DNA of 64,000 nucleotides from Hormiphora californensis (GCA_020137815.1 CM035354.1:3844001-3908000), one strand, 5' to 3'. Counted from the stretch's first letter, positions 18,401-62,231 are shown. The notes: generated by a model not told the origin, from the letters alone. Numbers and translations: made by a program.

Positions 18401-21400
18401 AATTCAATCAATTAATCCCAATTTTCCTCTTCATAGGGCCATCAGAGTTTCCTGAAAAACTGGGAAAACAGGTTATCGGGGACCTACATGGTGCTAGGTG
18501 GATAAACCTGGGGGCAAGAGTCATCCGTCTGTACATTACACTTCGCCCATCAGACGCCATCTACCCAACAGTGAGACAGTTGACTGATATAATTGTAGGA
18601 ATACATTTCAAGGTAAAAAAGTTCTTTCAGGTCGATGATGCCTACATACTGAAAATCCAGCTGTTTGGAAATGTATTGCATACTCGACATATCACTGGAT
18701 GTGGTACACCACGAATAACTCCAGAGGAGATTGAAGATGCTCAATCTATTTTGGACCTGGATATGAGCTTGGTGACACTATCCCGTGGACCTCAGGAAAA
18801 TCCCGTTGTTTGGAAATGTATTGCTAAACTAAAGAATTTTGAAAGACATTGGATTAATCCTGGCTCGTATCCTCTCGATCTGTGGAACTCTGAGGGGTCA
18901 AACAACGCTCTAGGATCTCTTTTTGGAGCAAAGAAACCTATCATTTGGATCAGGACAATGAAGATCCACCAGGAGAAGACAGAGCTAGTGCTGGCACAAA
19001 GTCTTGTCGGTCGAACAAATGTTTCCAGAAAAAAAGAAGAAATACGTTTCCAGAAAAAAAGAAGAAATACGTTGATGAAATTAGACCCGAGTAAGCTTCT
19101 CCCAGCTTTAAAGCAACTACACACTGTACCAAATGTTGCCAAGGTGTGGGAGGCCTTTTCCTTTTAAGCTCGATATCTCTGTAAAAACTGCCTAAGAACT
19201 TCTAAGTCCCTAGCAACTCCCTTGCAACTCCCTAGCAACACCCTGTCAACTCCCTAGCAACATCCTATCAACTCCCTAACAAAACCCTAACAACTATCTA
19301 TCAACTCCCTATCAGATCCCTGCCAACTCCCTAGCAACTCCCTAGCAACACCTTGTCAACCCCTATCAACTCCCTGTCAACTCCCTGTCAACACCCTAAC
19401 AACACCCTAACATTTACCTGCTCATTCTTCTTCCTCAGCCTCATCTCACTGTAACTGATGATGGGGAGGATCCTATCTGGCCAGGAGAAAGTCGTATCAT
19501 TCAGTTTGATATCCTCTTCAGGGAGGGTCGCGTAGTCCAGCAGGAATATGAGATTCTCCGCAGCTGGCACAGCTTGGTTCTGAGGGTGCATTAATTTAAA
19601 CTGGGTCTACTGAATGTATTCAGTTGAAGATCTAGTGATATATTCTCTCCGTTCCCACTGCCCATTGCCGTCTTAAGGGTACGCTAACCAAAATTTTTTT
19701 TCGAGTGCAGGGAAATCTCTCACCGCAGAGTTGTAGGCCATGCCAAGGAGACCTCAAATATGCAATTTTAGCCCTCAAGTCGAATTCATATTTTTGCTAC
19801 AGCCGTTTTAAAATCGTCTTGAAAATTTCTGAAAAGACGTTTTTGACACCCTAAAAATACATTTTCAGGGCTAGAAGCTTAAAATTATGGGGATTTGAAG
19901 GGGATAGGAAGGTTTATCGACACAAAAATTTTTATTAAAATCGGTGATGATTTTCGGTCGTGAGATTGATTTACTTTTTTCCCTCTTAAAGGCCCTATTT
20001 AGCAAAGTTCCGAAAGTTTGTGAAGGCTGTAAATTGGTGAAAAGTTGCGTCTAACGATTATCTAAGTGGCCACAAATTTTTGGCGTGTCCTTATTTGAGA
20101 CAAGTTCTACAGAGCTTTTTTTGTGAAAGCCGTTTTTTTTAGAAATAAAGAAATAGCCTGTATCTCAAAAACGACTAATTTTAGAGACCTGAGACCAAGC
20201 TTAAACGATTCAGAAGGTCCGATTTTGGGGGGGTCTTCTGAGAGACATTTTTCTCCTACTTCAACGGTTTTCGCTGTAATTGCGAAAAAGGATTTTGCAA
20301 GAAGGTGGAAAAGCAGCACGAAGCAGGCTGTCGGAACTCCTCTTTTGCCCTCTTCAAAGGATTTGTTTTTCGCAATTACAGCGAAAACCGTTGAAGTAGG
20401 AGAAAAATGTCTCTCAGAAGACCCCCCCAAAATCGGACCTTCTGAATCGTTTAAGCTTGGTCTCAGGTCTCTAAAATTAGTCGTTTTTGAGATACAGGCT
20501 GTTTCTTTATTTCTAAAAAAACGGCTTTCACAAAAAAAGCTCTGTAGAACTTGTCTCAAATAAGGACACGCCAAAAATTTGTGGCCACTTAGATAATCGT
20601 TAGACGCAACTTTTCACCAATTTACAGCCTTCACAAACTTTCGGAACTTTGCTAAATAGGGCCTTTAAGAGGGAAAAAAGTAAATCAATCTCACGACCGA
20701 AAATCATCACCGATTTTAATAAAAATTTTTGTGTCGATAAACCTTCCTATCCCCTTCAAATCCCCATAATTTTAAGCTTCTAGCCCTGAAAATGTATTTT
20801 TAGGGTGTCAAAAACGTCTTTTCAGAAATTTTCAAGACGATTTTAAAACGGCTGTAGCAAAAATATGAATTCGACTTGAGGGCTAAAATTGCATATTTGA
20901 GGTCTCCTTGGCATGGCCTACAACCCTGCGGTGAGAGATTTCCCTGCACTCGAAAAAAATTTTTGGTTAGCGTACCCTTAATATCAAATTAGAGACGAAA
21001 AACGTTTTTTGATTACCCAGATATTATTTCTCTCAAATTCCCATACTGTCTCCTATTTCCTACCTTCAAATCCTGAAGCTCCTTCGTTTCCAGCTTATCA
21101 AGGAACTTCATCAGCGTCACCAAATCATCAGTATTATCGGGGATAGTGGTGATCTTTGTCACTATCGCATCGTACTGCTCACAAATGCTCTTGTTGGTGG
21201 CCCGGGATCGGAACACAATATCCCGGAGGATCATGTTGGATAGCATGTTGCTTCGATCACACAGGAACCGGTTCATCTTGTTACAGTTTAGTTCGAACAG
21301 GTGCATGGGAACAATCACTATCCTCTCCATGACCTCGTCTGTGAGCATTTTGTGCTTTTCTATCGCCTGGTGATTGGGGGAGGGGGTCCCGGGTCAGCTC

Positions 21401-23949: not shown

Positions 23950-23961
23950 GGTTCATACCTC

Positions 23962-24632
23962 TAAAACAGCGATAATTTCGACGGGTATTGGATGGCTCTT
24001 TTGAAGCAAAATTAAGTCAACACTAAAGCTCTTTCCAGCCTTTAAAACGCTAAAACGACTGAAACTCGAAAGAAAAAAGACAAAAAACTAAAAAGACTAA
24101 AAAGAAGAAGATTGAGATCTGGCCTGGATTTGCAAATATTTGATTAGCGCGAGCGCGCGGGAGGGCTGCAGCGCTTTCGCTTGGCTTGCGCTGCCATGCC
24201 GGCTCCGGGTGCGCGTGTTGGGGTTGAGTTATCGTTTTTTTAAAAACTCCGTCCCCAAAATCTTTCCATTTTTCAGTTGTTGTGTTTGACTTTTGAGCAT
24301 GCACTGTACCGCATTGGTTGCAGCCCCTAGGTGCTTGCGTTTTTGACGACCTGGTACGGGGGACTGCAGCGTAGGCCAATGCCTTGTCGGGGTGTGTTTT
24401 CGACAAAAATCTCCGAAATTAACGCCACTAGTGGTGCCTAGTAAAGATTTGTCCTCTCCCCGTGTGGACACCAATCACAGCACAGATGACAGAACTTGTG
24501 TCTAGCACGTAGCAAGCGATAAAACGTGCAAATAAATACATGGGGCCTTCAGAATGTCCATTGCAGAGCCGAGGGCCGTTTAAAATTGAATTTGAAACTG
24601 CATGCCATCGAATTAACAACTTACACCTTTGC
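23962..24632. promoter_or_regulatory. Probable bidirectional promoter between head-to-head DNAH3 and HACD
   Basis: About 690 bp between divergent ATGs; CpG-rich core at about 24145-24230; CCAAT motifs on both strands. Confidence 0.5.
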
Positions 24633-24636
24633 AGCC

Positions 24637-25447
24637 ATGTTGTCTAAGGTTTACCTACTCTTGTACAACTGTTGCCTCGCCTGCGGATGGAGCATTGTCC
24701 TTTACCAGGCAATCCTGGAGCTGGCGACCGCCCAAAATCCAACCTACGTCTATGAAAGATGCCAAGTAGCCCTCAAAATCTCCCAAACTCTAGCCCTACT
24801 TGAGATTTTCCATGCGGTTGTCGGTCTTGTGCGATCTTCCCCCTTTACTACGTTCGTCCAGGTATGTAAGATTTATGTACAGGGTTTAAAATCTGCAGAG
24901 TATAATGATTATTTGTGTAATTATGGTTCCCATTGGTGTAGATATTGTTTGGTTTTGCTGATTTTCCCATTTGTTACAATTATAAACCCCCTTCTTCTGC
25001 CTCTCAGGTCCAGTCACGTCTAGTTGTCCTATGGCTCGTCCTTGACCCAGTCTCTGAGGTACATGGTTACAGTAATGTGCCTATGATGATCATAGCGTGG
25101 TGTGTGGCTGAGATAGTTCGATACTGGTACTATGCCCTGTCCCTGGTGGACAAGGTACCATACTTCCTAACCTGGTGCCGGTACTCCTTCTTCACCTTCC
25201 TATATCCCATTGGAGTGTCGGGTGAGCTCCTGACTATCTTAGTATCCTACCCATGGTTACTGCTACCGGAATGTTCTCTTTGGCCCTCCCCAACAAGTGG
25301 AATTTCTCATTCAACTATCCTATCTTCCTGATGATCTATATGATGGGATATGTTCCGTACCTGCCCAAGCTTTATATGCATATGTTGAAGCAACGATCTA
25401 AGATGTTGGGTAAAGCTGCTGTGGAAGGAGAGAAGAAATCCAACTAA
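24637..25447 (+). CDS. HACD: Very-long-chain 3-hydroxyacyl-CoA dehydratase (HACD1/2, PTPLA family); exons 24637-24861 and 25008-25447; 1-nt frameshift at about 25247
   Basis: YLLLYN..GW, QTLALLEIFHAVVGLVRS..QVQSRL, IAW..AEIVRY.YY, WCRYSFFTFLYPIGVSGE, LPN.WNFSF.Y, YMHMLKQRSK, C-terminal KKSN (KKxx ER signal). Confidence 0.9.
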
Positions 25448-25735
25448 TAGTTAAATTAGTAGATTGTGTTGATTGTATTGTACAATGTATAATTGTACAT
25501 GAAGAAGCTATTAGAAGTGTGGATTATTGACGTGTGTGTGTCATAGTAATTATTCCCTAGACACAATTATTATGCAACGTTATTTGGTGTGCCTTTTGTT
25601 TGATACTTATCTTTTTGTTTCGGGTGAATTATAAAAACGATTTTTTAGTTCTTCCCTCCTTCCTTCCATGGCGATTATACCATCTCCCCGTCATCCACCA
25701 TGTACCTGTTATTGTAGTATGGCCATGGGAGTCAC

Positions 25736-28700
25736 ATGTTAGCAGACGGAACAGTGAACGGTAGAAACGAAGGTATTAGAAATGGACACTATGGCGTGGC
25801 ACCACCACCACACGATTATACACGGATTAGCGATGAAAATATCCATCGGATTGAATTCATAGAATCGGGTAAGTGGGGATGCTGTGTGGTAACTATAGTA
25901 ACCACTATCTAGCCTAGATTCTAGGGATTAAGTATTGTTGAACTGAGTAACCAAGTTTTATAAGTTTGAACCTTTGATACTTCCTAATTACGAACACACT
26001 CCTACGGCCCATGACATCTTATTTCAGGAGGTCAAGGTTCAGTTTACAGAGGAACATGGAACAATGGTGAAAAGGTGGTGGAGGTCGCCATCAAGATCGC
26101 AACTCATAACACCCCGGAACTGAAAGTTTTACAGAGGGTTAGACACAAGAATATTGTGCACTTCTATGGAGCGATAGAGAAAGTTGGGCATCAGCCCCAA
26201 ATTGTCATGGGTGAGTGATCATGCCAAAATTACACTCATGTGTTCAGTGTTGGTAATGAAATTACTCCTCCGCGAAAGCAATAATAGGGGTGACTTCGTA
26301 ACCAACTAGATGTGGCATAGACCTTTTTTTCGTAAAATTTCCGTAAACAAAGTAAAGATTGAGTTTTCTCCCCGTTGTGCTCACTGCAATGTAACCCGAT
26401 ATAGGTAGTAGTACGTCCCAAATATTAAATATTACACCATGGAATCCTTCCCTGGAATCCTTATCCTTATGATCATTCCATATTGTTCCACATCTAGCCC
26501 GGTGGAAGCACATAAGTACTAATTACTCCATCCTCTGTATTTCAGAGTTGGCGGAGTACGGGTCTTTGTTCAAGGTTATCAAATCTGAGGAGCTGTGTTT
26601 CGAGAAGATTCTAAAGTTTTCCCGGAATATTGCCGATGGGTTGAACTACCTACATACTGGCATGGTAGAGAAAATAATCCACAGGTAAATCTAAATTGAT
26701 TTAGCGCCAAATCTGTCCATATACATTCCACTCCAGTGTCTGTTATATGTTAGGTTAACCCCATGGTTCTAGAATTATAAAACTCCCCCCTAGATCCGAA
26801 CAGGGGATATTTAACTTAACTTCCCCATTTCTAGAGATTTGAAGAGTAAGAACGTGCTGATTACTCACCAGTGGATCGCCAAGATTTGTGATTTCGGATC
26901 CAGTAAAGTGACCGCAGTAGAGGCTACCCATTGCTCCATGACCACTCGACAGGGAACACCTAGTTGGATGGCACCTGAGGTCAGTTAAGAGATGGGAGTT
27001 TTCTTGGGTAAGAATAACAGGGCTGGCTCCAGTAGAGGGTGTGGGGGGGGGGCGGGGTCAGTTTTTAAGATGGGAGTTTTCTTGGGTAAGAATAACAGGG
27101 CTGGCTCCAGTAGGGGGTGTGGGAGGCGGGGTCAGTTAAGAGATGGGAGTTTTCTTGGGTAGAAATAACAGGGCTGGCTCCAGTAGGGGGTGTGGGGGGC
27201 GGGGTCAGTTAAGAGATGGGAGTTTTCTTGGGTAGAAATAACAGGGCTGGCTCCAGTAGAGGGTGGGGGGCGGGGTCAGTTTTTGAGGTGGGAGTTTTCT
27301 TGGGTAAGAATAACAGGGCTGGCTCCAGTAGGTTTGGGTGGGGTGCGTGGGGGTGGGGGAGTGTCATGTCTGTTTTTGAGACTGGGACTTTTCTTTGGGG
27401 AATTGGGTAGGAAGAAGAAGGTTGTGACAGTTTTGGAAGGGAGAAGAAGAGTTTATCTTGGGGGTATAATTGTAATTGCCCCCATTCCTCCGGCTAGTCT
27501 CTACTCCTACAATGTATAGGAAGAAAGTGGCAGGTAGTTGGTGTTGTCGGGCATGTTAGGGCATGCCCACTGTACTAGAGGGAGATCGAGGGAGGGTAAT
27601 TATTTACTGCCCCTCGCCACTGTCGGCTCCCTTTCTTTTCACAGTGTAGAGAGAGAGAGAGAGACAATCAGCTGTGAGCTGTGAATAGAGTTTATGTAGC
27701 TTGAATAATATGCAATGATGCAAAATATTCGACAGTTAGAGTAATGAGTAATGAGTAATGACTACTGTGAACTAGAGTGGAGGTATCATATCTTTAAAAG
27801 CTGTCTCATGAGTACCCCACCTTCACACTTGAATTGCTCACAGCATAAAAAATGTTGTCTCATATGAGACCCTCCTCTCCGCACCGGGCCTTCGGCCCGG
27901 TGCGGCTACGCGAGGCCGTGCGGTGTACAGTCAGTGTAGGACAAAAAAAATGCGACTCAACACTCCTTATATTAGGGGAGTCCCTAACTATATAATACTT
28001 CTCTATGTCTCTGACTTTCCAAATTACTACTTCACAGGTGATCCAACAAAAGAACATCACGGAGAAATGTGACACCTACTCCTTCGGATGCCTGCTGTGG
28101 GAGATGGTCACTAGAGAGATACCCTGGAGGGGTATGGAGTCCCAAGCTATTATGATGGCAGTTGCATTTCACAAAAAGCGACCACCCATTCCTGATGAGT
28201 GTCCTGGACACTTTGCTGATCTTATACGGTATAAACTTGGAGAATTTCAATCTCTGAATATAGATTAAAAAGAAGAGGTCTTTTTAAATCGAATAAGTTT
28301 GTATGAACAACTCAAAGTATAATCCACGTAATACCCGCAGGAACTGTTGGCAGCACGACCCCGAGAAGCGGAACACCATAGAGCAGATATCCTACCAGTT
28401 AAATGGCATGATAAGTAACAAAGAACTGTCCAACCAGGTCGATCACTTCTTTACAATGAGGGAACAGTGGATGAAGATCGTTGATGAGCAGATGGAGGTA
28501 ACCGTTTTAATTAGCCCAATTAACACAATTGTAATAATTTTAGTTAGCTCAATTAACTCGATTGTTAAAGAATATTTGAATCAATTCAAAAGTGTATGAC
28601 ACCTTGTTATAGGAGCTAAAACAAAAAGAATACCGATTGGGTGCTCGGGAGCAGCGAATGGACGAGATTTGGAGTGCTATCTTGTTGAGAAAGGATAATC

Positions 28701-45200: not shown

Positions 45201-48200
45201 ATTGCCGCCTACAGCTGCCGATTCTGCGGGGACAAGTGTCGATACAAGAACCACGGAGAGTGTGAGGGTGGAAATGTTATCAGTGGAAACTCAACTGTGT
45301 GCCTGGAGAAGAATACTAAAATTGAAAAGGTTAAATCCCCCTCTGTTCAGCTAATGTACTTCGTTAAATCCCCCCTCCTCTGGTTTCTGAACGTGCCTTG
45401 TTCGTGTGAAGAATATAAACAACTCAGAACACAACCATATTCAGCATTTGGTTCAGTGTTTAGTGCGTAACTGGACGCTTTATAGTGATTATACCGCCCT
45501 CACCTTCTGGGCAACATTCCTCAGCACATTCCATGTGACATTCTCACGGAACACGGGCCGACAAATGTATCTATCTCCCCCTATTCTATCTCTCTTCTAT
45601 CTCTCTCCCCCTCTCTGTATATTTCTCTCCCTCTTCTATCTCTCTCGCTCTTCTATCTCTCTCTTCTATCTCTCTCTCTCTCCCTCTTCTTCCTCTCTCC
45701 CTCTATTTTTCTCTCCCTTTCTCTCTTAACTCCTCAGTTAACCCCTCCTCCCCCTCCTCCACGCAATTAACCCTCCTCTTACTCAATTAACCTCCCACAT
45801 CCCAGGTGTTACCCTCGTGGAGTCCCGGTGAGGGCGGGGTAGAAATAACCCTCTTTGGAAAGAGTCTCTCGGTGAATGGGCTGACCGTACAGGTTGAATT
45901 CCTGTTCGAGGATTCCAAATCTAAGTCTGTGGAAACCATTGCCTGTCAAGATACAACTTACACCAACTCAACTAGGTACAGCCCTATTTTCCAACCCCGA
46001 TATAGGGAATCAACAACCTTGTTTACGAAATAACCCCTCGCACACTGGCAAGGAAGGGGTAACTTCGTTACCAATAGTTGACCCCGGCCCGATATACTGG
46101 GCATACCGATTTCTGTAACACTACTCTCTTCTGTAGGGTAACGTGCAAGACGCCCAGTATTATGGAGGCTCATTCCTTCAAAGAGATGCACAGAGAGGTA
46201 ACGGCTAACATGAGCCTGAGGTACATCGGGGGAACAACAGCTCGACATGTGTCTAACTACCAGTTCCACTTTACGGTAGGTCCTGTACTAGATCTCTATC
46301 TATCTATCTACGGAGTGCCTGGGCTTGCCAACGGCAAGCCCACAGGGGACTATCGCAAAGCGATATCGCCGGCACTAGGAGAATAGCCCCCCTCCCCTCC
46401 CCCACCATCAGGAACTGCCCACAGGACAGGTTCGCATTATAGGTGGCTTCGGGTTGGGGAGACTAAACTCCTTCGAGAGTCGCAGAATCTTGATTCTTCT
46501 TCCCTATTAGTCTTGGAACTTTGGCTCAATCTCCCTGCGACAGGTGGTTCTTGAGTTTATTTGCTTTCTCGATTAGCTTGATGGCTACCGTGGTGTGATA
46601 TATTATCGTTTTGCCTAGATCTTTGTACGAAGTTTTGCCGCTGAGTCTCATTCTCTCCGTTTCTAGGATTTCACATTCACAGATTAGGTGTTTCGCATTT
46701 TCTTTTGTTTTAGAGCATAGACTACATATGTCTGTATTCGATTTTCCAATCTTCTTGAGGTAGTAGTTGAACGGCCCTATATTTGTGATGAGATGTAGTA
46801 TGGTTCTATACTTTTTCCTTTGGTTTGCGTACAGTGTCATTTTTTTTGATAGTGAGTTCCATGTTGATTCATTCGTTACTATGGTTCTTGTGTGTTTCCC
46901 TCCATTTATTAGAAATTGGTTCATGGTTTTTGTTTTGGCTATTTTCGCCGTAGAATTTTTAATATAGCTGTGTGGGATTGGTATTTGTCTGGTTTCACTG
47001 ATTGATTTGCTGCATCCTTCTTTGGCGAGTTGGTCAGCTATCTCATTACCTTGGATGCCGATATGTGCTTTGACCCATTTTATTTTCACCGTATTGTTTT
47101 GTGCTAGTTGGTTGAGTTCCGCGTTGCATTCCTTAATTGTTAAGGAGTCGGAGGTCAGTTTACTTAGTGCACTTATGCTGGCGGCTGAATCTGATCTGAT
47201 GTGGATGTGGTGATTTCGTGTCCCATTGTTGTTTAGTTCCTCTGCTGCTCTTTTAATTGCTGTTACTTCGGCTTGGAAGACTGTGCTATAATTTGGTAAT
47301 CTTTCTGAGATATCGATTTCTTGTGTAAGCACTGTGGATTTTGAGTGTGCTCCTAGCCCCGTTTGGTTAGCTTCGTTTTTCGATCCATCCGTGTATACTG
47401 TTAGTGCATTTCTGTCCTCCTCATCTAGTGTACCTGTTTCCCAGTCTATTGTTGTCTCGTAGTTTTTCATAAGGGTTTCTTTGGTTGTTTTGTCTAGTGG
47501 GCGTACTGGTAGCTCTAGTTCTTCCCACAACCTGTTGCATGTATGAGCATGGGTATAGTTGGTTAACATACCTTTTTCTTTAGTCCATTTCCCATTTGCT
47601 TTTAGGCGCCCAGTGGTTTCAGTAGCTGTTTTCTCTACGTGGTGTATTATGTCTGTAGTGTTCGTTATGATGTTTAGGTCAGCCCCTGCAGTGTTAGGGA
47701 AGGCACCGGTTGCTATTCTGAGAGCTAACCTTTGCACCGCTCTCAGTTTCTTGGCATTATGTTGTTTATAAATCGCATTTATCCATATTGGTGCTGCGTA
47801 CGTTATGAGGGGTCTGATGGTTTGTCTGTAGAGCCATATCGCTACTTTGGGGGATAGTCCCCATGTAGGTCCGATGGCGATGTTGGCTCTCATCAGGTTC
47901 CTTTTGGCTTTTTTTGTGATGTTATCAATGTGTTTGTTGAAGTTTAGTCTGTTGTCTATCGTAACTCCAAGGAATTTTGTTGTGGTGCTTAGTTTTATTT
48001 CTGTACCTTCAATGAAGATTGGTTTAAGTGCCCATTTCCTTTTTGTGGTAAACATTATCATAGTAGTTTTTATTGCGCTGAGCGAAAGGCCTTGGTCTTT
48101 ACACCAGTTGTTTATGTGGTTGAGAGTTGTTTGTGTTCTGTGTCTTATTATCTCTATATCGTCTCCTTCGGCCAGTGATATGAGGTCATCTGCAAATGCT

Positions 48201-51200
48201 TGTAGGTATGCTGGTGTGTCTTTGGCTGTGCTTTGTAGTAGGCTATCTAATACAATATTCCATATTAGCGGCGAGAGAATCCCTCCTTGAGCTACGCCTC
48301 TCTTTATTTGGAAGGTAATGTTCTCATTTTTATGTTCAACGTATAGTGACCTTGTTGTTGTCATATCCATTATCCAGTTTATTGTCTTTGTGTTTATCCC
48401 TTTGTTTATGAGGCCCCGTTGGATTGCTTCGAATGATATCTTGTCGAAGGCACCCTCGACATCTAGGAATACACCTAATGCAAACTGTTTCCTTTTCATC
48501 CTTTTTTCAATCTTGTGAACGATTTTGTGTAATGCGGCTTCTGTGGAGTTAGATTTTCTGAACCCGAATTGTTTATCGTTAAGCTGTGAGTCTATCTTGT
48601 TTTTTTCCAGGTTCCAGTATATTAGTCTTTCTTGTATCTTAAGGATGATTGGAGCGAGTGTGATGGTGCGGTACGCCTTTGGGTTGTTGTAATCGTCTTT
48701 TCCTGGTTTCGGTAAGAATATACCCTTGCTAGTCTTCCAGTTATTCGGTGTTTGGCCGATGTCGTACGAACATTGAAATAGTTTCAGTAACGGTTCTGCC
48801 ACGGTGTCTATGGCGTTTTGTAGCATGTTGGCTGTAATTTTGTCTGGGCCTGGGGCTTTGTTTGGTTTCATTGAGTTGATTGCATCTTTGACTTCCGTTA
48901 GTTCAAATTTTAAGGTATCTCTTTCTTCCGCTGTTTGGATTTGGCTTATATTGTCGATTGTTGTCGAACCAAAGTGTCTGTCTCTCATTATTTCAAGGGT
49001 TTCTTTTGCGTTTGTTGTGATTGAGTCGTCAGCCCTATATATACAGTCCAGGTTCCTGCTTGAGTTATCTCTGTTCTTGCATATTTTATTAAGTCTAGAT
49101 ATGGCTGGGGTATTTGCTATATTTTCCGTGAACTTCTCCCATGCTTCTTTCTTGTGTGTTCTTTGTAGTCTGTTAAGAATGTTGTTCGCATTTTGTAATT
49201 CTTGTTGTGTCTGTAGTGTTTTGTTTTTTCTGTGTTTTTTCAGTTTTTTCTTCGTTTTATTTATTTGCGCCCTTATTTCTTTGTTGTACCAGGGTGGTGG
49301 TTTGATCTTGTTTGTACTATATGTGTATTCTGTTGTTAGGTCCCATGCCTTTTTGATTTTCTCGTTTATGACTTCAGATGCTCTGTCCATTTCAGACTTA
49401 TTGGTTGGTGGATTGTTTATTATTGTTTCCAGATCTTTGTCCTCGGCTAGGATTTGCTTGAATTTCGGCCAGTCCGTGTTTTTGTCTGTTTTTGTTTTCT
49501 GGAACTTGTTTGTCATGACTTTTAGTTTAGCCCTTAAGTACTTGTGATCTGAGTTTGTAAATTCTTGACTGACCGTCCAGTTGCAGATTAGCTCTCTTCC
49601 TTGTTCGTTGGTTATCGTGAGGTCAATAATTGATTTTTGAAGTCTTGAATTTTCGAAGGTGGCCTTGTTGCCTGTGTTCATGAGAGATAGGTTATTGTTT
49701 GCTAGCGAGATTTGTATCTCATCCCCTCTTTTGTCAGTTTTCTTATCTCCCCAAATGGTGCTGTGTGCGTTGGTGTCGCTGTTGATTATTAATGATGCAT
49801 GTTGTTTTTTGGCATATTTTGCCAGTTTGTGTATGATGTTTATATATTGTAGGGTGTCTTCGTCACCATCCATGTAAATTGCTGCAAGTATAATTTTTTG
49901 TTGTCTCCTGTTTATCTGTATGGCTATGCTGTCTCTGGTTGTAAATTCGTGCAAGGTGATGGCCTTGGAGGAGTGGTTCTTGTGTAACGCTATAGCTACC
50001 CTTGGGTTGTGTTCTGTTGTTTCTGGTTTTATTATTGCTATATCTTTGTGGATATTGGGTATTTTTTTGTTCTTGTCGCAGTAAGGTTCGCATATAAAGA
50101 TGATGGGGGCGTGGTTGTTGATTATGTTTGCTGAAAGTGTTGTTAGTGCAGCTTTCTTGTGCTGTTGGTTCGTGTATATCATGGAGATTGGTACTAGATG
50201 GTCATCGGTTTTTTCTTTTGCTTCTTCCTCGGTTCTTGCGTGGTTTATTTGCGTTGTGAAGATTGGAGAGGTAGCGTTTGTTCTATTTATTCTTTTGTTT
50301 AGTTTCATTTCAGCCGTCGACGTTGCAATCGGCTGGGATCTAGTGTTATTGGTTGAGATGTCTTTTGTTGATTTGAAGTAGTTTGTGATTAAGTTATTTT
50401 TAGTCGTTTGTTTTGGTAAGTGTGGTTTTGTCATTTGGTTGGTGTTGCTTGTTGCGGTCATGGTTTTGCCCTTTTTGGCCTTGTTGCTGGTTCGTTTCGA
50501 GTCTGGTGTTTGCCTTTTTTTCGTGGTTGGAACTGTTGGGCTATTTGTCATTACTTTTCTGCATTTGGCCCTACATGTAAAGTTGTCGTTGCGTGTTCTT
50601 TTTCTCTTAATGGGGCTAGAGGAGATAAGATGGGAGTTGTTCGAGGAAACTTTGCCGGAAGGCTTGTTCGTGGCTCTTATGCCTGTTCGTTGCGCTGTGT
50701 CATGGTCGTTGATCTTGGGTATCGTTGCTTGGTTGTCGATAAGGTTATCGTGTAATTGGGTCAAATTAGGAATCGGTGATGATTGCTTAGTCGTGGCACT
50801 TGGGCCAATACGAGGCTCGAGGGCCTTTACGTTGCTCTTTGGCATTATAGGTGATCGAGGCTCTTGGGCCTTTACGAGGCACGTAGGCCTATTAGTTGCG
50901 CTTGGGCAATTGTACTTACCGATCCTTGGTGGTTGTTGTCTACATTGCTAGTCTGCAGGGTGAGAGGTTAATTAGTGTCAGAATGGTGAATAGAAGGAGT
51001 TTCGCATCATGTAACCACGCGCTTGGAACTGATGTCTGGTGGGCTAGCGGACGTTTCTCAGAGCAAGATGACATACGCTGCAGCTACCTCTTCGTATTGA
51101 GGCGCGCGGCGAGGGGATTGCAGCGCATTCGAAAACAAAAGGGAAAATGTACAAACAGAATTTATTTGTTTTTTTATTTTATGCTCGCCCTGGGGTGCAG

Positions 51201-54200
51201 TGAAGCTTCGCGCGCCGCTAGTCAGTTTGCTCGCGCGGTTGTGTTTTAGCGCGTGACAGGGACGGCAGTCTTGCTTTCCGGAGATATTTCCCGTGGTAAA
51301 AGTCTGATTTTTGAAGATGTCACCCCCTGGGTGACGCGCGATGTTTTATTTGCGCGTCGTAAACATTTATGCTAGTTTTTTGGCTCTCCCACCTTAGTTT
51401 CTTGACCACGCGTGGGAGGGGAGGAGACAACTTCAAAAAAATCCGACTTTAGGCTATTAAGAGTCGTTTGTTAGGTTTGGAGTTAGAAAATTTAAAGTTT
51501 AAAATTTAAATGGATATTAAAAAGAATAGTTCATCGATTACAGTTCAACACAATGGCCAAAGGATTGTCTGTTGGTCAAGGGGGTGTTAGTCATCCATGG
51601 GATGGCTGATGTCCAACACGGATACCCCCTTGACCAACATTCCACTAGCATCTTTGAGTTGGAACGGTTTGAGTCCAGGGTCCTTGGTCTTGGGGCTTGA
51701 GGTTCCAGTCTGTCCCTGTGGTGAGGATGTGTTGTTAGGGGATGGTTTGGGAGAAAACCAGATTTTCTCAGACGTGTGAAATGTTATTTGGGTAAAGTGA
51801 CTGGTTCTCAGCCAATCGGTAAGTAATATTTCCTGGTTCGGTCGGTTGCTAATTACATAAGTCTAGTTATAGTACCTGCTTCTTGTCCTTGTTCTTGTTC
51901 CTCTTATCCTTTTCTTGTCTGAGTTGGTTCTGTGCTTCTTGTAGTGCTGCTTGTTGTTGCTGGAGTTGCTCCGCCTGTTGCTGCATCAATAGTTGCTGCT
52001 GTGTGATGAATTCTTGCTGCTCCATCTGTTGTCGGGCCAGAGTTTGTATCTCCTGTTGTTGTGCTAACAGAGCCTGTAGGTGGAGTTGTTAGCCTTGCTG
52101 TAGGAGGGGTTAGTTGGGTGGGGTGTGGAGATGGGGGTGGAGGTTATGGGGGGGGGGGGGATGATGGTGTGTATTGTTGAGTTGTACCTGGTTTGTGTTG
52201 GCGTTCTGGTCTAGCATCTGTTGGTTAGCTTGGTCATTCTGGTCCATACGTTCATCCGCTGGTTCATTGTTACCGGGTACTATTCCATTACCTGGTACTA
52301 CTCCGTGTCCGGGTACAGCTCCATGTCCAGGTACAGCTCCGTTTCCTGGTGTCATTCCGTTGACTCCAGCAACATTTCGGTTTCGGTTCTGTATGGGGGG
52401 AGGGGTTGTTAGTAGGGATTGTTATACTTCATCTTCATAATTTGATAGTTAGAGGGGGGAGTGGTAATTTGTTTACCAGTCTTATATAAGTTAGGGGGTG
52501 GGGGTTGGTAGTGGATTTGTACTGAATTCGGTAGTTTTGAAGGAAGGGATTATGGGAGGAGGGGAGGTGTATTTCACTTGCCTGTCTTATGTAGGGAGGT
52601 GGGGGCCTAGCTGTTCCCTCTCGTCTTCTTACATTGACTATTCTGAAACCAGGAACTGGTACGATCAAATCTTGCGCTATATCTCCCATTACATAGAGTA
52701 GATGATGGCCCTTTACACTGAGTTGGACTGGAGGTCTGGTCAGAATTGCAGGTTCTAACCACCCGAGAATCCTGGACATTGTCTCCCTCGATTGTAAATG
52801 ATTAAATGTATCAACGACCCGTAGCGAGTGGGTATGGAGGTCATCCTCTTCACATACGTATTGAGCAGGTACACCTGGAATGTTATCTGCAGTCAACATC
52901 AGCGATCTGCCTCGGTAGTCCCGGTTCGTTAACAAGGGAATGTTTTGTTGCAGGAGGAAAGTCTCCAGATCCTTAAAATCCGCGTCTTCAAGCGCCAGCA
53001 TCTCGGTACTATAAATCCTAAGTTGGCGGCCTCTCGGGGCACGCATTATCTTCTGTTGTGGGGTCAGTCTCCTTGCCATGGTTGCTACATGAGAGAATAT
53101 TGGTTATTTGCTGCTGTCGATAGGGGTGTGAGGGTGGTGGGTTGGGTGTAGAGGGGGTGAGAAGGGAGGGGCGGCGTAATTACAAGTGGTATTTGGATAA
53201 TAAGGGACGAGGGGAAGGGGATACTGATATTACACTACTACAGTTGTGTTGGAATGGGGGCAGTAGAGAGCAATATTATTAACAATGTCAGATTTTGAGG
53301 GAGGGAGGCTAAGGGTGATGCGTTGCAATTATACTATCAAGAGCTTAGGATATTGACAATTGAGACTTGAGATGATGGGGAGAGAGGTAAGACTGGTGTC
53401 ATCTAATTAGCGGCAGTCGAGAATTGAGATATTATTATACTACAGCATTTAGGAGTTGTGAGGCTACAATATTGCTAACAACATTAGTGAAATGCGATAG
53501 TTGTAGAGGAATACTGTTGCTGCAGTGACTATAGTGGTATGCTATAGAGGAACAACTGTACTACTGTCAACAGGCAATGAAAGAGGAGGTCAGGGAAGAG
53601 CGGCGTAACTGCAGGCTACGTTTGAGAAATGAGGTGATGAGAGAGAGAAAGAGATTGCGCGCGCGCTGTTTGTTGGTTAGTGGAGTTGTGTATCTGTTGT
53701 AGTCGGCGCAGCTGTCGGTACTCGCGCGTTACGTCTTTGGTTTGGGTCTGTATAGAGTGCGGGGTAAAGGTCGGTTGGAAGAAGGAGAAGGGGGGGTTGT
53801 TGTAAGTGTGTAGATCGTGGTGTCGACGGCGAGCCGTTATCGTCGGTAATACCGAAGGTCGGATAGGTCCGAAGGTTGGGGGGTGAAGAAGATTGGTTGG
53901 CTCTCAGTCAAGACTGAGAGCCTTAAGCCACTGCGCCGCGGCAAGGCTCTTCTTCGTGCAGTGGTCCTGTACTAGATAATCAATAGTTGTGATTGAAAAA
54001 TTCGTTTCCAGTTTCCATTAAAAATAGTTTCGTACAACGAGCTTGGAGTCAGTTCAGTCGCGGCTGCACTTCTTGTGTATTCCATTACCACCATGGACGA
54101 TTTAGTATTCCCCAATGTAACACCGCCCTCCCCCTTCCAGCCACTAGATATCGATGAAGTGTTCCCTGATCAAGGGCCCGTTTCTGGGGGCACCAGGATC

Positions 54201-57200
54201 AAGGTGAATGGAACACGGCTCTGTGTCCACGAACAAACCGGAGTTACAATCAACGGGAAAACGTGCACCAACGTCACGTGAGTAAACCAGATCAGGAGAA
54301 TTTAAATTGAGAGAGTGAAACTGTTAGCTGCAGCTTTTTACTCCTACCCAGTATCCATGGTAACCCCCATGGTAACCCCCATGGTATCCCCCATGGCTAA
54401 CCCCATGGTAACCTCATGGTAACCAAAAGCTATGTTAACACCCCCATTGTTCAGGTGTAACACCGCTACTCAGGAGCTGCACTGCACAACCCCAGCTAAC
54501 CCGATGGGAACACCCCGACAACCAATTGCAGTCTCCCTGGGAGGGGCTACAGTGGAGAAGGATGTCTTCCAGTACGGAGCAGATCCAGTTGTTACTAAGG
54601 TCACACCCAACTGTACTCTTGCACAAGGTAAGTAGTTCAAAACAACCCTTTACTACTACTTCGAAACTGATACCATCGCGCTTTAAAACTATATTTTATC
54701 TCCTCCCCAAGTAAAGTGGAACGAATTTAACACATCCCCCCTCTCTCACTAAAGAAACATCCCTCCCCTCTCCCAGGTGGAACCAATATCACGGTAACGG
54801 GCAAGGATTTCTACCGTATCCAGAATCCCAGACTGGTCCTAACAGATGAAACATGCTCTGATCCTGGGATTGTGATGGTTCCTGCAATGGTTAAATCAAA
54901 TGAACGGTTGATATTCACCATCCCCCAAGACACGACCCGCACCAAACTAGGATTCAAAATGGACAATGTGAGTTTGGCAGCAAGTCAGAGGGGGAGGGGG
55001 TGCAGGAATCGTCTGTGAATACCATGTATTTTACTGTTTATTGATATTCATTTCTCCATTCCAATGCCTTGTTTTAGGTTGAGTCAGTGTGTGAGACAAA
55101 CAAACTATGGGCCTTAGAAGTTCTCCCACGACCGACTGTGATCACCTCTGCCTTTATGGACGGCACCAACAAGTCCATGAGATGCTTTATTGGGGAGAAT
55201 TGCACCATCTCTGTTCAGATGACACAAATACACAGGTAAAGTGATCCAGTTACCATGGTTACCGTCAGTTTGATGCCGTTACCATGGTTACCGTGTTAAC
55301 CGTGGATTTTGGGTGTTTCAGGGAATTGGACTTGCTCCAAAAAATGTGAAACCCAAGTTGTGTGAACAGAATCTGTCAGCACAAGTTTTTCACTTTCACA
55401 ACGTCCTGTGTAACCCTACCCTTTCTCTCCACAGGCTGCCAGATCAAGTGACGGTTCTGATAGGTAGCTCAGCTCTCTGTGCCAACATGTCCATTACACA
55501 GATGCAGACTGACCCTGCGGAGGGGATCTTGTACGCTTTCGGACAACTCAAGTGTTCCTCTCCATCTCTTGATAAAGTGAAAGGTATATTGATCGTTGTC
55601 TAGCCCCCCCCTCCCCCTCCCCCCGATCACCGGAACCCCGACTTACCGGGCGAATAAATTTGGCCCCAATTTGGGCAAATCGGGGTTCAACTGTATGCAT
55701 GTTATCATCCAATCATTCATCCTCAATATTCCAGGTAGTGTATATCAGCTAGGAGGCCGGACTAAGAGGGCCCTGTTGGGGGACCAGGAGACGGACAAGT
55801 TCTCTGTGGTGGTCCAGATAGGACACTATGAGGAGGAGCTGGGTACCATCGTGTTCGTAGAACGGGGCTTCAAGTGGATCTACGCGTACATTGCTGCAGG
55901 TATTGTAATTGTTCAGCAGTATTTTCCAATCTCTTCTTCGTATAGTATCCTTCATTCCCCCATCCCTCCCCCTAGAGGTTCTTAACTCCAACGGTCCAAC
56001 ACCAACACATTACAACACATTTCTACCTATTCGACACCCCCTCCCTTCTACAGGTGCTATTGGTATGGTGTTGATGGTGTTTATGCTGGTGATCGTAGTG
56101 AAAACAAGGAACGAGCAACACAAGAGGAGCCTTCTTCAGCAGAACCATGAGAAAGAACTAACAGCCATTGAAGTGCGATGGCAGGGAGAGGCAAAGAAAC
56201 GTAATTAGACTCAGTCATAAAAGCGAAACTCGCCATGAAACTTTCTTCTTTAATATCCAGTATATCCCCTATTTTCACCACGAATTAACTCTCCCTTTGA
56301 ATGAATTACTAGTGATTAGAATTCCTCACTTACTTTTTACTTTCCCTTGTTAAGTACCTAATCCACCCCTAACTCCCCATCCCTAACTCCCCACCCCCTC
56401 CCCACACAGAGTTTGTTATGAACATGATAGACCGAGATGAGGGATTAGAAAGTTTCAAAGTGGATCCTCGAGATATCCCATTCAGAGTGTTTAGAGACTA
56501 CCTAATCCACTGTATCTTCCCAAGTGTTGATACACGGAAAATACTCAATAACTTACAGGTAAGTTGACTAATTTTATGCTCTCATTTCTTCCCTGTTCTG
56601 AGCACAAAATTGAGTTTATTTTTCTTTTATTTTTCCTTTATTTATAGTAAGGGAATTAAGGGCCGTGAATGGGAAAAAATTCGCAACAAGCTAATTCCTT
56701 CACCAATGTGTCCCTAAGGGTCTCCACTAAGCCCCCAGAAAAGTGTAACACGCTGCCGGGTGTGCAACATGGTCATTTCCGGGTAGGCGTGGTACCTGTA
56801 TTTTCAGCCTGTAGCCAAAAACATAAATCCTCTTAGAATAGGAGTAGAGACAAAATCAAGGACACTAAAATGTTCAGCGTCCTCGCATTAGTGGGGGTAG
56901 GTGCTGGAATTAAGTCTCTATCTCATCTGGTTAATTAGATAATTGGATAATTAGGTTTGCGCATAACCGTTTTTTGGCTGTATGGCTATAGCCACTTAGG
57001 AATGGTTTAGAGATTTTTCATACATGCCATTTTGTTCAGAAAAAAATTTTAAACTAAGAATTGTGTAAAAATTTAGGGCCTATCTCGTACCGTTTTGGCG
57101 TTATTTGCGGTCAAAGTAGGCCAATTAACTCATTATTGGGCATTTTCGGCTGATTTGGCCTACTTTGACAGCTAATAACGCCAAAACGGTAAGAGATAGG

Positions 57201-58306
57201 CCCTTAATTTTTGCACAACTCTTAGTTTAAAATTTTTTTCTGAACAAAATGGCATGTATGAAAAGTCTCTAAACCATTCCTAAGTGGCTATAGCCATACA
57301 GCCAAAAAACGGTTATGCGCAAACCTAATTATCCAATTATCTAATTAACCAGATGAGATAGAGACTTAATTCCAGCACCTACCCCCACTAATGCGAGGAC
57401 GCTGAACATTTTAGTGTCCTTGATTTCGTCTCTACTCCTTTTCTAAAGGTATTTACGTTTTTAGTCTTAGCCTCAAAACACAGGTACCACGCCTACCCGG
57501 AAATGACCATGTTGCACCCCCGGCAGAGTGGTACACTTTTCTGGGGGCTTAGTGGAGACCCTTAGAGACACATTGGTGAAGGAATTAGCTTGTTGCGAAT
57601 TTTTTCCCAATCAGGGCCGAAATCTGCCTATAATTCCCTTACTATTACCCCAGTAAATGGCGATAGTTCAAGATGTTAATCCCTTTCTATTTCCTCAGCT
57701 CGAGCACACAGAATATCCAGATGAGCAACTGGGCCGGTTCAAACAGTTTTTGAACGATGAGCATTTCGTTCAGACATTCATCTCTGTGATAGAAGCTCAA
57801 CGTGATTTCCTGGTACGTTGAACAATATCCTAGTTACAACTTTAGTTACCTTGTCAGACACTGACTGTACAGTGTACACCGCACAACCTCGGCCCGGTGC
57901 GAAGTGGACGGTCTTATATGATACAATAGTTACCATGGTTACTATAATTCTAGTTACCTTGGTAACCATGACAATTCCGTAGGTGCCCCAGCGGTGTGAC
58001 GTGGCTAGTTACCTAACGATAGCACTCTACAGTGATTTCAATTACCTCTCCAGAATCCTCTTCCTCCTACTCGACAAGTAAGGGATCTTTTTTGATATTT
58101 TGATATTTTCCTTCTGGGAACGGTCGGTAATTTTCTATGAGTGAATTTATGTGAATCATTCTTGAATTGTATATGAATCAAACATTTAATCCCTCATTAT
58201 TTCCCAGAGTGATTGATACGGATATCCAGAAGAATGCCAAGCTACTGCTGAGACAAACTAAATCTGTTGCGGAGAAACTCCTTACTAACTGGCTCTCTCT
58301 CGCACT
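33420..58306 (+). CDS. Plexin (signal peptide, divergent Sema, 3 PSI, IPT/TIG repeats, TM, start of RasGAP domain); about 23 exons, 3' end beyond the window
   Basis: PSI motifs CDECHGLNDPHCGWC (34847-34949), CGACS..CTWCP (42665-42767), CVTCL..CRFC (45138-45329); IPT P..GP.SGGT.I.V.G..L; TM WIYAYIAA|GAIGMVLMVFMLVIVV; cytoplasmic PFRVFRDY..CIFP, F..TFI.VIE.Q.DF, VASYLTIAL, KLLLRQTKSVAEKLLTNWLS. Confidence 0.9.
46526..50845 (-). CDS. LINE ORF2: AP endonuclease, reverse transcriptase, RNase H, CCHC finger (1439 aa, uninterrupted)
   Basis: CEPY, SDTNAHS, IIDLT, SDHKY; KAPGPD, YRTITL, QFGFR, FLDVEGAFD, GVAQGGILSP, AFADD, KFLGV; YTDGS, STVFQAE, SDS, WVKAH.GI.GNE.AD; CSLC..E..KHLICEC. Confidence 0.97.
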   Translation of the reverse strand: MPKSNVKALEPRIGPSATTKQSSPIPNLTQLHDNLIDNQATIPKINDHDTAQRTGIRATNKPSGKVSSNNSHLISSSPIKRKRTRNDNFTCRAKCRKVMTNSPTVPTTKKRQTPDSKRTSNKAKKGKTMTATSNTNQMTKPHLPKQTTKNNLITNYFKSTKDISTNNTRSQPIATSTAEMKLNKRINRTNATSPIFTTQINHARTEEEAKEKTDDHLVPISMIYTNQQHKKAALTTLSANIINNHAPIIFICEPYCDKNKKIPNIHKDIAIIKPETTEHNPRVAIALHKNHSSKAITLHEFTTRDSIAIQINRRQQKIILAAIYMDGDEDTLQYINIIHKLAKYAKKQHASLIINSDTNAHSTIWGDKKTDKRGDEIQISLANNNLSLMNTGNKATFENSRLQKSIIDLTITNEQGRELICNWTVSQEFTNSDHKYLRAKLKVMTNKFQKTKTDKNTDWPKFKQILAEDKDLETIINNPPTNKSEMDRASEVINEKIKKAWDLTTEYTYSTNKIKPPPWYNKEIRAQINKTKKKLKKHRKNKTLQTQQELQNANNILNRLQRTHKKEAWEKFTENIANTPAISRLNKICKNRDNSSRNLDCIYRADDSITTNAKETLEIMRDRHFGSTTIDNISQIQTAEERDTLKFELTEVKDAINSMKPNKAPGPDKITANMLQNAIDTVAEPLLKLFQCSYDIGQTPNNWKTSKGIFLPKPGKDDYNNPKAYRTITLAPIILKIQERLIYWNLEKNKIDSQLNDKQFGFRKSNSTEAALHKIVHKIEKRMKRKQFALGVFLDVEGAFDKISFEAIQRGLINKGINTKTINWIMDMTTTRSLYVEHKNENITFQIKRGVAQGGILSPLIWNIVLDSLLQSTAKDTPAYLQAFADDLISLAEGDDIEIIRHRTQTTLNHINNWCKDQGLSLSAIKTTMIMFTTKRKWALKPIFIEGTEIKLSTTTKFLGVTIDNRLNFNKHIDNITKKAKRNLMRANIAIGPTWGLSPKVAIWLYRQTIRPLITYAAPIWINAIYKQHNAKKLRAVQRLALRIATGAFPNTAGADLNIITNTTDIIHHVEKTATETTGRLKANGKWTKEKGMLTNYTHAHTCNRLWEELELPVRPLDKTTKETLMKNYETTIDWETGTLDEEDRNALTVYTDGSKNEANQTGLGAHSKSTVLTQEIDISERLPNYSTVFQAEVTAIKRAAEELNNNGTRNHHIHIRSDSAASISALSKLTSDSLTIKECNAELNQLAQNNTVKIKWVKAHIGIQGNEIADQLAKEGCSKSISETRQIPIPHSYIKNSTAKIAKTKTMNQFLINGGKHTRTIVTNESTWNSLSKKMTLYANQRKKYRTILHLITNIGPFNYYLKKIGKSNTDICSLCSKTKENAKHLICECEILETERMRLSGKTSYKDLGKTIIYHTTVAIKLIEKANKLKNHLSQGD
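51587..53079 (-). CDS. Putative spliced LINE ORF1 (341 aa): exons 53079-52582, 52388-52188, 52073-51876, 51715-51587
   Basis: Three phase-0 introns with CTAAC branch points and C-rich tracts ending in CAG; donors CAG|GCAAGT (or in-frame GT at 52476), CAG|GTACAA, CAG|GTACTA; exon lengths 498, 201, 198 and 129 nt join into one open frame. Confidence 0.7.
53885..53964 (-). ncRNA. HDV-like self-cleaving ribozyme fold at the 5' end of the LINE
   Basis: P1 CCACUGC/GCAGUGG; P2 GAAGAAGA/UCUUCUUC; P3 GCC/GGC; L3 UUGCCGC; single G-C P1.1 pair; P4 GGCUCUCAGUC/GACUGAGAGCC; J4/2 C-C-A-A. Confidence 0.8.
56645..57644. mobile_element. 1.0-kb palindromic non-autonomous element, Academ-like
   Basis: TAGTAAGGGAATTA..TAATTCCCTTACTA termini; ~480-bp arms; 3-bp TSD TTA. 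Confidence 0.8.
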
Positions 58307-61227: not shown

Positions 61228-62231
61228 TAGTAGGGACGAATCTCTTATAAAAAGAAGTGGCTGACTCACTATTTGGTGGAAAGCAAATTCCGGTTGTAAC
61301 CCACCTATTTTGACCCGCTGAACACGATCCCGTTCATAGGTAAGGTCGCAAAAGTGAAGAACATGCCCAAATCGGCCACGCCCTTTTACCTGTATTTTCA
61401 GCCTGTAGCCAAAAACATAAATCTTCTTAGAATAGGAGTAGAGACAAATCTGAGGGCACTAAAGTGATCAGCGCCCTCGCATTAGTGGGGGTAGGTGCTG
61501 GAATTAAGTCTCTATCTCATCTGGTTAATTAGATAATTGGATAATTAGGTTTGCGCATAACCGTTTTTTGGCTATATGGCTATAGCCACTTAGGAATGGT
61601 TTAGAGACTTTTCACTGGCGCCATTTTGTAGGCAATAGCCAAGTTATGGGGGGTCGACGTCGGACTTTTAAGCTCTATCTCCAACCGTTTAGCCGTTATT
61701 GGGCTAAATCGATGCTCAAAATGAGCGAAAAACGGTAAAAAGCCCGTTTTTGAGCATCGTTTAAGCCAAATAACGGCTAAACGGTTGAAGATAGAGCTTA
61801 AAAGTCCGACGTCGACCCCCCATAACTTGGCTATTGCCTACAAAATGGCGCCGGTGAAAAGTCTCTAAACCATTCCTTAGTGGCTATAGCCATATAGCCA
61901 AAAAACGGTTATGCGCAAACCTAATTATCCAATTATCTAATTAACTAGATGAGATAGAGACTTAATTCCAGCACCTACCCCCACTAATGCGAGGGCGCTG
62001 ATCACTTTAGTGCCCTCAGATTTGTCTCTACTCCTATTCTAAGAGGATTTATGTTTTTGGCTACAGGCTGAAAATACAGGTAAAAGGGCGTGGCCGGTTT
62101 GGGCATGTTCTTCACTTTTGCGACCTTACCTATGAACGGGATCGTGTTCAGCGGGTCAAAATAGGTGGGTTACAACCGGAATTTGCTTTCCACCAAATAG
62201 TGAGTCAAAAAATTAAGATTCGTCCCTACTA
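61228..62231. mobile_element. 1.0-kb palindromic non-autonomous element, Academ-like, related to 56645-57644
   Basis: TAGTAGGGACGAATCT..AGATTCGTCCCTACTA termini; 3-bp TSD TAT; shares an ~230-bp arm block with the first element. Confidence 0.8.

Follow-up and report, generated by a model that had tools for sequence, protein, structure and literature searches.

Long interspersed nuclear elements (LINEs) normally lack introns, and a single bicistronic RNA serves them both as mRNA and as template for insertion; how the second open reading frame (ORF2) is translated from such an RNA is an old question. This report concerns an intact LINE of 7.67 kb from the ctenophore Hormiphora californensis (GCA_020137815.1 CM035354.1:3844001-3908000), which lies on the minus strand at 53962-46294 of an analysed stretch of 64,000 nucleotides, hereafter the window. 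Introns 1 and 2 of its ORF1 are spliced out in one public RNA contig yet kept in the inserted DNA copy. In addition, a long spacer before ORF2 carries signals suggesting that the ORF1 mRNA ends there and that a distinct ORF2 mRNA begins there, the latter likely capped by a spliced leader (SL) at the acceptor AG 50953, a reading that we favour tentatively and regard as close to evenly balanced.

The separate ingredients of this arrangement have precedent in other elements. Cer1, a Gypsy/Ty3 long terminal repeat (LTR) element of C. elegans, makes a spliced subgenomic mRNA that carries SL1, while strong splice sites are bypassed in its 8-kb genome-length RNA, which receives no leader; it differs in being an LTR element with gag-pol made from unspliced RNA, whereas here a LINE is concerned, its ORF1 needs splicing, and an SL on ORF2 is only presumed (PMC3315495). 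In human L1, splicing together with internal polyadenylation gives SpORF2, an ORF2-only mRNA from a LINE, but the ORFs are uninterrupted and the cis splicing is optional, in contrast to the phase-0 introns in ORF1 and the 741-nt spacer seen here (PMC2896524). Penelope-like elements keep introns through retrotransposition and have an internal promoter that overlaps the 5′ intron, although they encode a GIY-YIG endonuclease, have pseudo-LTRs, and their described introns lie mostly in the 5′ untranslated region (UTR) (PMC8557442). The L1Tc/ingi elements of trypanosomes are LINEs with a ribozyme resembling that of hepatitis delta virus (HDV) and an internal promoter at the 5′ end, in a host that trans-splices, but their Pr77 transcripts are described as unspliced, without SL, and are thought to be translated cap-free (PMC3383444). 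Drosophila TART, along with Tad and L1 as cited in PMC1636488, provides non-LTR elements with subgenomic RNAs and transcript introns, the introns of TART differing in that they occur in antisense, non-coding RNA. Finally, SL operons of the nematode type have co-oriented cistrons with a 3′-end signal followed by an unpaired acceptor (PMC5832876), whereas in the present case about 195 nt separate the putative cleavage site from the AG, a promoter-like island lies between the two, and the unit, being mobile, has to produce uncut RNA as well. No LINE whose ORF1 has coding introns that are spliced, or whose ORF2 carries an SL, appeared in the literature listings covered, a scope that stopped short of subscription papers, Repbase and supplements.

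The element is bounded by a target-site duplication and a simple-repeat 3′ tail (Table 1), and no long terminal repeat was found in it, as expected of a LINE. With ORF2 matching the Pfam families PF14529 (9e-18), PF00078 (1e-31) and PF00075 (4e-16), it is a non-LTR retrotransposon of the APE-RT-RNase H type (I group), which, going by the reverse transcriptase (RT) motifs, may belong with the Loa/R1 clades; the nearest named relative of ORF2 comes from Mnemiopsis leidyi (43%). Its insertion is in antisense orientation within a host gene at 33420-58306 (+), a few bases behind donor 46276, and enlarges the intron there to 7865 nt. The gene, presumably plexin-like from its domain order, has 24 exons (23 introns) that join into 1384 codons without a stop. 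No second copy of the element occurs in the window. At its 5′ end, an HDV-like fold starts at 53963, with the first bases of the element, and was the single descriptor match on both strands of the window (128 kb; z -3.9). It is predicted to form the nested double pseudoknot of P1-P4 with a catalytic C in J4/2 that is looked for in such ribozymes, while L3 and position 1 depart from the consensus, and no Rfam family for this fold was among 13 Rfam matches at E<=5. The 5′ UTR measures 881 nt and contains four upstream AUGs.

The RNA evidence consists of contigs from three public runs, the coverage of which excludes 50004-51915 and 53087-53960. One contig, from run X2, matches ORF1 at 99+% identity, skips 52581-52389 and 52187-52074, and stops at 51916, which leaves 40 nt to the donor of exon 3; for intron 2, the AG used is the lower-scoring, downstream one. 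Because a DNA copy with the marks of target-primed insertion has kept introns that are removed in RNA, the ORF1 mRNA and the template must differ, and these coding introns already suffice to force the two apart. Provided that the predicted intron 3 (51875-51716) is also spliced, ORF1 encodes 341 amino acids (aa) and ends with TAA at 51589-51587. Two sequences of Pleurobrachia bachei are related to its exon 1 (56% and 33%), so that, as with ORF2, the nearest named relatives point to a ctenophore host; Pfam gave no match to ORF1. The structural model (pLDDT 79) contains two ferredoxin-like domains with weak fold matches, the best being E 0.008 to tandem RRMs in Foldseek and Z 7.2 in VIA, with a root-mean-square deviation of 2.7 over 62 residues. 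Two of the six HMMER matches (P0125 and P0126) were repeat proteins and were dropped. As a separate observation, a perfect inverted repeat of 16 bp extends across the stop codon of ORF1 at 51570-51639 (-), with z about -4.

Splice sites were scored with matrices for which two host genes supplied 49 acceptors and 50 donors; their frames are open across the exons used except for one frameshift in dynein, and chance was gauged with 1000 dinucleotide shuffles of the 741-nt spacer. A check of the minus strand recovered every motif listed in the preliminary description of this locus, namely the ORF1 stop, the AATAAA hexamers, the AGs at 50953, 50948 and 53085, the AUG-UAG, the donor at 50919 and the ORF2 AUG. 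The acceptor CTAATTAACCTCTCACCCTGCAG ends at 50953 on the minus strand, 634 nt separate the ORF1 stop from AG 50954-50953, and the ORF2 AUG follows at 50845, 107 nt after 50952. The strength ascribed to this AG was borne out: it scores 11.8 bits against a host leave-one-out median of 11.6 and ranks fourth among the 498 AGs of the element, where only the ORF1 intron acceptors are stronger. An equal acceptor appeared anywhere in the spacer in 5.5% of the shuffles and within the last 150 nt in 0.8%, the position having been chosen post hoc. The donor 50919 is likewise a strong consensus site (second of 204); its use would remove the ORF2 AUG, the next strong AG being at 50616. Since seven upstream AUGs occur in the spacer and four in the 5′ UTR, scanning to ORF2 from the full-length RNA is unlikely, and acceptor 50953 therefore probably matters. 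Ctenophores are reported to trans-splice, a leader ending in AATTTGAG being carried by 56% of Hormiphora Iso-Seq reads (PMC8527503), and an unpaired acceptor is described as the usual SL substrate (PMC5832876, PMC4558846); no SL gene lies within the 64-kb window.

Upstream of this acceptor, AATAAA occurs at 51350-51345, 51178-51173 and 51166-51161 (minus strand), i.e., three times against 0.64 expected (P=0.026). As candidate poly(A) signals, those at 51178 and 51166 are the best two of 17 in the element for a U-rich downstream tract, but the density in the spacer, 4.0 per kb, resembles the 3.2 per kb of ORF2, and no poly(A) end was seen in the contigs, whose coverage excludes the spacer. Downstream of 51148 only weak GT donors are left (3.9 and 2.6 bits). 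Beyond what the preliminary description lists, the spacer also contains the 300 nt richest in CGCG of the window (10 of 70 occurrences), and the 900 nt upstream of the ORF2 AUG hold 12 CGCG, those upstream of ORF1 six. At least four CGCG in the 900 nt upstream were counted at four of five host gene starts, compared with 9% of 1091 non-LINE windows of 900 nt (maximum 8); the binomial P is about 3e-4 for a motif chosen post hoc. By analogy with these host gene starts, the island in the spacer is likely an internal promoter for ORF2, and the cluster upstream of ORF1 likely one for the ORF1 RNA. A CpG-containing GC-rich motif, to which the CGCG clusters may correspond, is described at ctenophore promoters and enhancers (PMC12221973).

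At the 5′ side of ORF1, the acceptor noted earlier at 53085 is indeed present, 5 nt before the AUG (53079), but it is moderate only (5.9 bits, rank 15), and a stronger AG is found at 53114 (11.2 bits, rank 5). Because no good donor lies upstream inside the element, where the best GT reaches 2.9 bits against a host 10th percentile of 4.3 and the best GC 4.4, the ORF1 acceptors appear outron-like and are likely SL acceptors. Each of the two ORFs has an AUG-UAG start-stop element ahead of it, at 53090 and 50945 (-), and at ORF1 its AG is the 53085 acceptor; ATGTAG is found four times against 1.5 expected, a weak excess. A search for leader sequence joined at 53084 had been recommended, and a second contig does end at this acceptor (53086) with 11 loose letters resembling the end of the leader. 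This candidate was rejected: the letters are those of the NuGEN SPIA adaptor, as identified from PMC4733280 and PMC4322613, and the same 12-mer occurs at 49217 on the other strand in run X1. The adaptor matches the genomic site in 5/12 letters at 53086 and in 8/12 at the X1 site. Its position at the ORF1 acceptor could hint at mis-priming on the last letters of the leader, as seen at one contig end. A control on the host gene starts (21000-26900) yielded five short contig pieces, none of them at 95% alike.

A larger scheme, in which the element would make three RNAs, namely an unspliced and uncapped template cut by the ribozyme, an ORF1 mRNA that is spliced and SL-capped, and an ORF2 mRNA of its own, likewise with an SL cap, arising from an internal promoter or from operon-like cleavage, is possible but rather doubtful. 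In the favoured reading, the unspliced full-length RNA with its 5′ end cut by the HDV-like fold would be the insertion template, and the spliced ORF1 mRNA would end in the spacer, most plausibly near 51148. The ORF2 RNA would start at the host-type CGCG promoter inside the spacer or else, in operon mode, would be the downstream product of the cleavage that forms the ORF1 3′ end; the promoter mode is somewhat ahead. Donor 51875 would likely be left behind, and donor 51392 probably as well, leaving 50953 unpaired to take the leader, while the AUG-UAG and donor 50919 would likely hold ORF2 output low. The preliminary description had proposed that trans-splicing resolves ORF1 and ORF2 into separate mRNAs. 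Trans-splicing in ctenophores, the splice signals in use in ORF1, the outron-like ORF1 acceptors and the HDV-like fold at the 5′ end agree with that proposal, but the operon picture is incomplete because of the CGCG cluster in the spacer, the donor 51392 upstream of the AATAAA hexamers, and two host 3′ regions without AATAAA. It had further held that the leader supplies the cap removed by the ribozyme. This part fails: the SL would cap new subgenomic mRNAs but cannot re-cap the ribozyme-cut full-length template, because the copy begins with the ribozyme fold and not with the leader.

Several observations weigh against a separate SL-capped ORF2 mRNA and the promoter proposed for it. No SL junction was seen, with contig coverage of the three runs excluding 50953, and two cis donors lie upstream of that acceptor, 51875 (6.5 bits) and 51392 (7.4 bits); a cis donor is reported to outcompete the SL (PMC4558846). 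Between the acceptor and the AUG there are 107 nt, and a start-stop ORF and a strong donor come after it; the five host gene starts differ in having an AG 2-26 nt before the AUG, although such an AG is common by chance. AATAAA is absent from both host 3′ regions inspected (n=2). The link between CGCG and promoters draws on five gene starts whose positions were set from ORFs, two introns (44401, 9601) have CGCG clusters as well, and the island in the spacer folds as RNA too. As to the splicing of ORF1, the evidence is one contig from one run, and the RNA status of this run is a database guess, although the run carries an RNA-amplification adaptor; the contig may alternatively stem from a processed DNA copy.

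The explanation that competes most directly for the same acceptor, which we consider somewhat unlikely, makes 50953 a cis acceptor in a bicistronic mRNA, with splicing competing against polyadenylation. In one form, donor 51875 would skip exon 4 together with the poly(A) signals, joining exon 3 to the strong AG to give a 325-aa ORF1 variant whose stop lies 26 nt before the ORF2 AUG, with no fusion and with termination-reinitiation at ORF2; in the other, a 440-nt intron (51392-50953) would take out all three AATAAA. The likeness of 50953 to host cis acceptors agrees with this, as do the uniform phase 0 of the ORF1 introns, the short gap between ORF1 and ORF2, typical of LINEs, that the skip would give, the passage of the reading through the AUG-UAG in another frame, and the example of human L1, which has both spliced and prematurely polyadenylated RNAs (PMC2896524). 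However, it leaves the CGCG island unexplained, it has to bypass an exon-4 acceptor that is stronger (15.6 bits) and nearer, and no such junction was seen, the X2 contig stopping at 51916, short of the exon-3 donor. A quite improbable alternative is that the acceptor is unused for ORF2 and that the structured spacer serves for internal ribosome entry or for the export or packaging of the unspliced RNA. Here the fold of the spacer beats 20/20 shuffles (z -3.3), its segment 51445-51300 reaches z -5.2, and 5.5% of the shuffled spacers contain an AG of equal strength at some position; yet the opposite strand folds equally well, the fold stops some 150 nt short of the AUG without pairing the acceptor, and no Rfam family matches.

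The suggestion in the preliminary description that cis-splicing from exon 3 could fuse ORF1 to ORF2 is weak, since the strong AG is out of frame for it, and we hold it to be very improbable. A join to the second AG (50948; exon start 50947) would be in frame and open and would give a 1772-aa protein, and the use of a lower-scoring downstream AG in intron 2 means that scores do not settle the choice between AGs. This AG, however, has 1.0 bit (rank 58), lies 5 nt behind a strong AG with which it shares the branch point, and is in phase 0 only because it lies in the in-frame TAG that closes the ORF2 frame. Furthermore, the relative P0002 begins at the same Met (17/27 residues identical), the 34 codons before the ORF2 Met are matched by no relative, and, as a weak point, no long ORF1-containing protein occurs among the candidates of 596-2000 aa. 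Hardly probable at all is a 33-nt cis exon (50952-50920) followed by an intron at 50919-50616, which would produce a 312-aa ORF1 isoform or would let the host silence the element by splicing out the ORF2 AUG. Its acceptor ranks fourth, its donor second and the next acceptor sixth, and it comprises 11 codons running from phase 0 to phase 0, but only 13 residues would be gained, initiation of ORF2 would be destroyed, and no junction was seen.

Returning to the separate ORF2 mRNA, its conservation was approached through relatives. A first metagenome scan confirmed 0/98 stretches, and a second gave 75 loci, three of which match at 37-40% over most of ORF2 (L001, L002 and L003), while 79 genome and 19 viral loci are distant or partial relatives. 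Searches with ORF1 and the spacer against all 173 loci returned nothing significant, word searches with ORF1 gave no match, and Atlas gave no usable match. Upstream DNA was inspected for 17 of the 173 loci. L002 (1-434) has a long non-coding leader with a GTAAGT about 20 nt before the ORF2 AUG. Further points count against the proposal: the AG of L002 scores under 2.2 bits, L001 is 5′-truncated, and L003 (1-207) has an upstream ORF1-like frame that overlaps ORF2, with no spacer. In several more distant loci (24-29%), coding sequence seems, by eye, to run up to ORF2, and the spacer may perhaps be limited to the subfamily P0001-P0006 (55-75%). Aside from this, GGCCC-containing repeated units flank the ORF2 AUG at 50800-50900 (-), P0002 and P0005 both start with a corresponding R-x-G-P peptide, which hints at an RNA-level signal, and a 12-mer across the ORF2 AUG recurs in the 3′ UTR, at about 46445 (-).

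If ORF2 has its own SL-capped mRNA, host trans-splicing would solve both the translation of ORF2 and the loss of the cap, while the unspliced RNA would have to be exported or protected and assembly would take place in trans. If the three-RNA scheme is true as a whole, a retrovirus-like strategy has been built from host machinery in a ctenophore LINE family, and both proteins must find their template in trans, against the cis preference of LINEs.

Table 1. Features of the LINE and of its spacer, in window coordinates.
Feature	Position	Strand	Remark
Target-site duplication, 5′ copy, 15 bp	53963..53977	-	sequence
HDV-like ribozyme fold (predicted): P1 7 bp, P2 8 bp, P3 3 bp, L3 7 nt, long P4, J4/2 with C	53885..53963	-	
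CGCG cluster upstream of ORF1	53650..53730	-	
ORF1 acceptors AG 53114, 53111, 53085, without good upstream donor	53085..53114	-	
ORF1 exon 1, 166 aa, two predicted ferredoxin/RRM-like domains	52582..53079	-	
ORF1 intron 1, 193 nt, GC..AG, phase 0	52389..52581	-	skipped by X2 contig
ORF1 exon 2, G/N-rich	52188..52388	-	
ORF1 intron 2, 114 nt, GT..AG, phase 0	52074..52187	-	skipped by X2 contig
ORF1 exon 3, Q-rich, likely coiled coil	51876..52073	-	contig cover to 51916
Predicted ORF1 intron 3, 160 nt, phase 0	51716..51875	-	acceptor rank 2/498, donor rank 8/204
Predicted ORF1 exon 4 with stop	51587..51715	-	
AT/U-rich tract; T-richest 40-mer of the element, starts 51526	51487..51526	-	
Long imperfect inverted repeat/three-way stem; AATAAA 51350 in loop	51295..51450	.	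z -5.2 (51445-51300)
CGCG-rich island: 11 CGCG, CpG observed/expected 1.29	51040..51430	.	densest 300-nt window of 64 kb
Candidate cis donor aag/GTGGGA, 7.4 bits	51386..51392	-	lies upstream of each spacer AATAAA
Candidate poly(A) site: AATAAA 51178 and 51166, CA 51149-51148, U-rich tract 51147-51132	51132..51178	-	
Branch-point motifs, pyrimidine tract and strong acceptor AG (50953)	50953..50981	-	
AUG-UAG start-stop micro-ORF	50940..50945	-	
Consensus donor GTAAGT, 33 nt after acceptor	50914..50919	-	rank 2/204 GTs, 5% of shuffles
ORF2, 1439 aa from AUG: APE endonuclease, RT, RNase H, C-terminal CCHC	46526..50845	-	
3′ tail (TAGA)n	46294..46311	-	
Target-site duplication, 3′ copy	46279..46293	-	

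Elsewhere in the window, a kinase gene begins about 280 nt after a PTPLA/HACD gene (24637-25720, +), and the interval has neither a CGCG cluster nor an AATAAA. The kinase gene, which is the fifth host start, the one lacking a CGCG cluster, has an AG 7 nt before its AUG, and the pair is a possible host operon. The dynein heavy chain gene has a single frameshift at about 8730 (-); the frames on either side of it are open, and it is likely an assembly error. A gene with an F5/8-type-C domain (6664-7275, +) is nested antisense in a dynein intron and has its own CGCG cluster, and a reverse-transcriptase fragment (17062-17538, +; Pfam RVT_1, E 4e-6) lies inside the dynein gene region. Large palindromic insertions resembling miniature inverted-repeat transposable elements are found at 274-2467, 19673-20981, 56644-57645 and 61262-62207, the last two being related.

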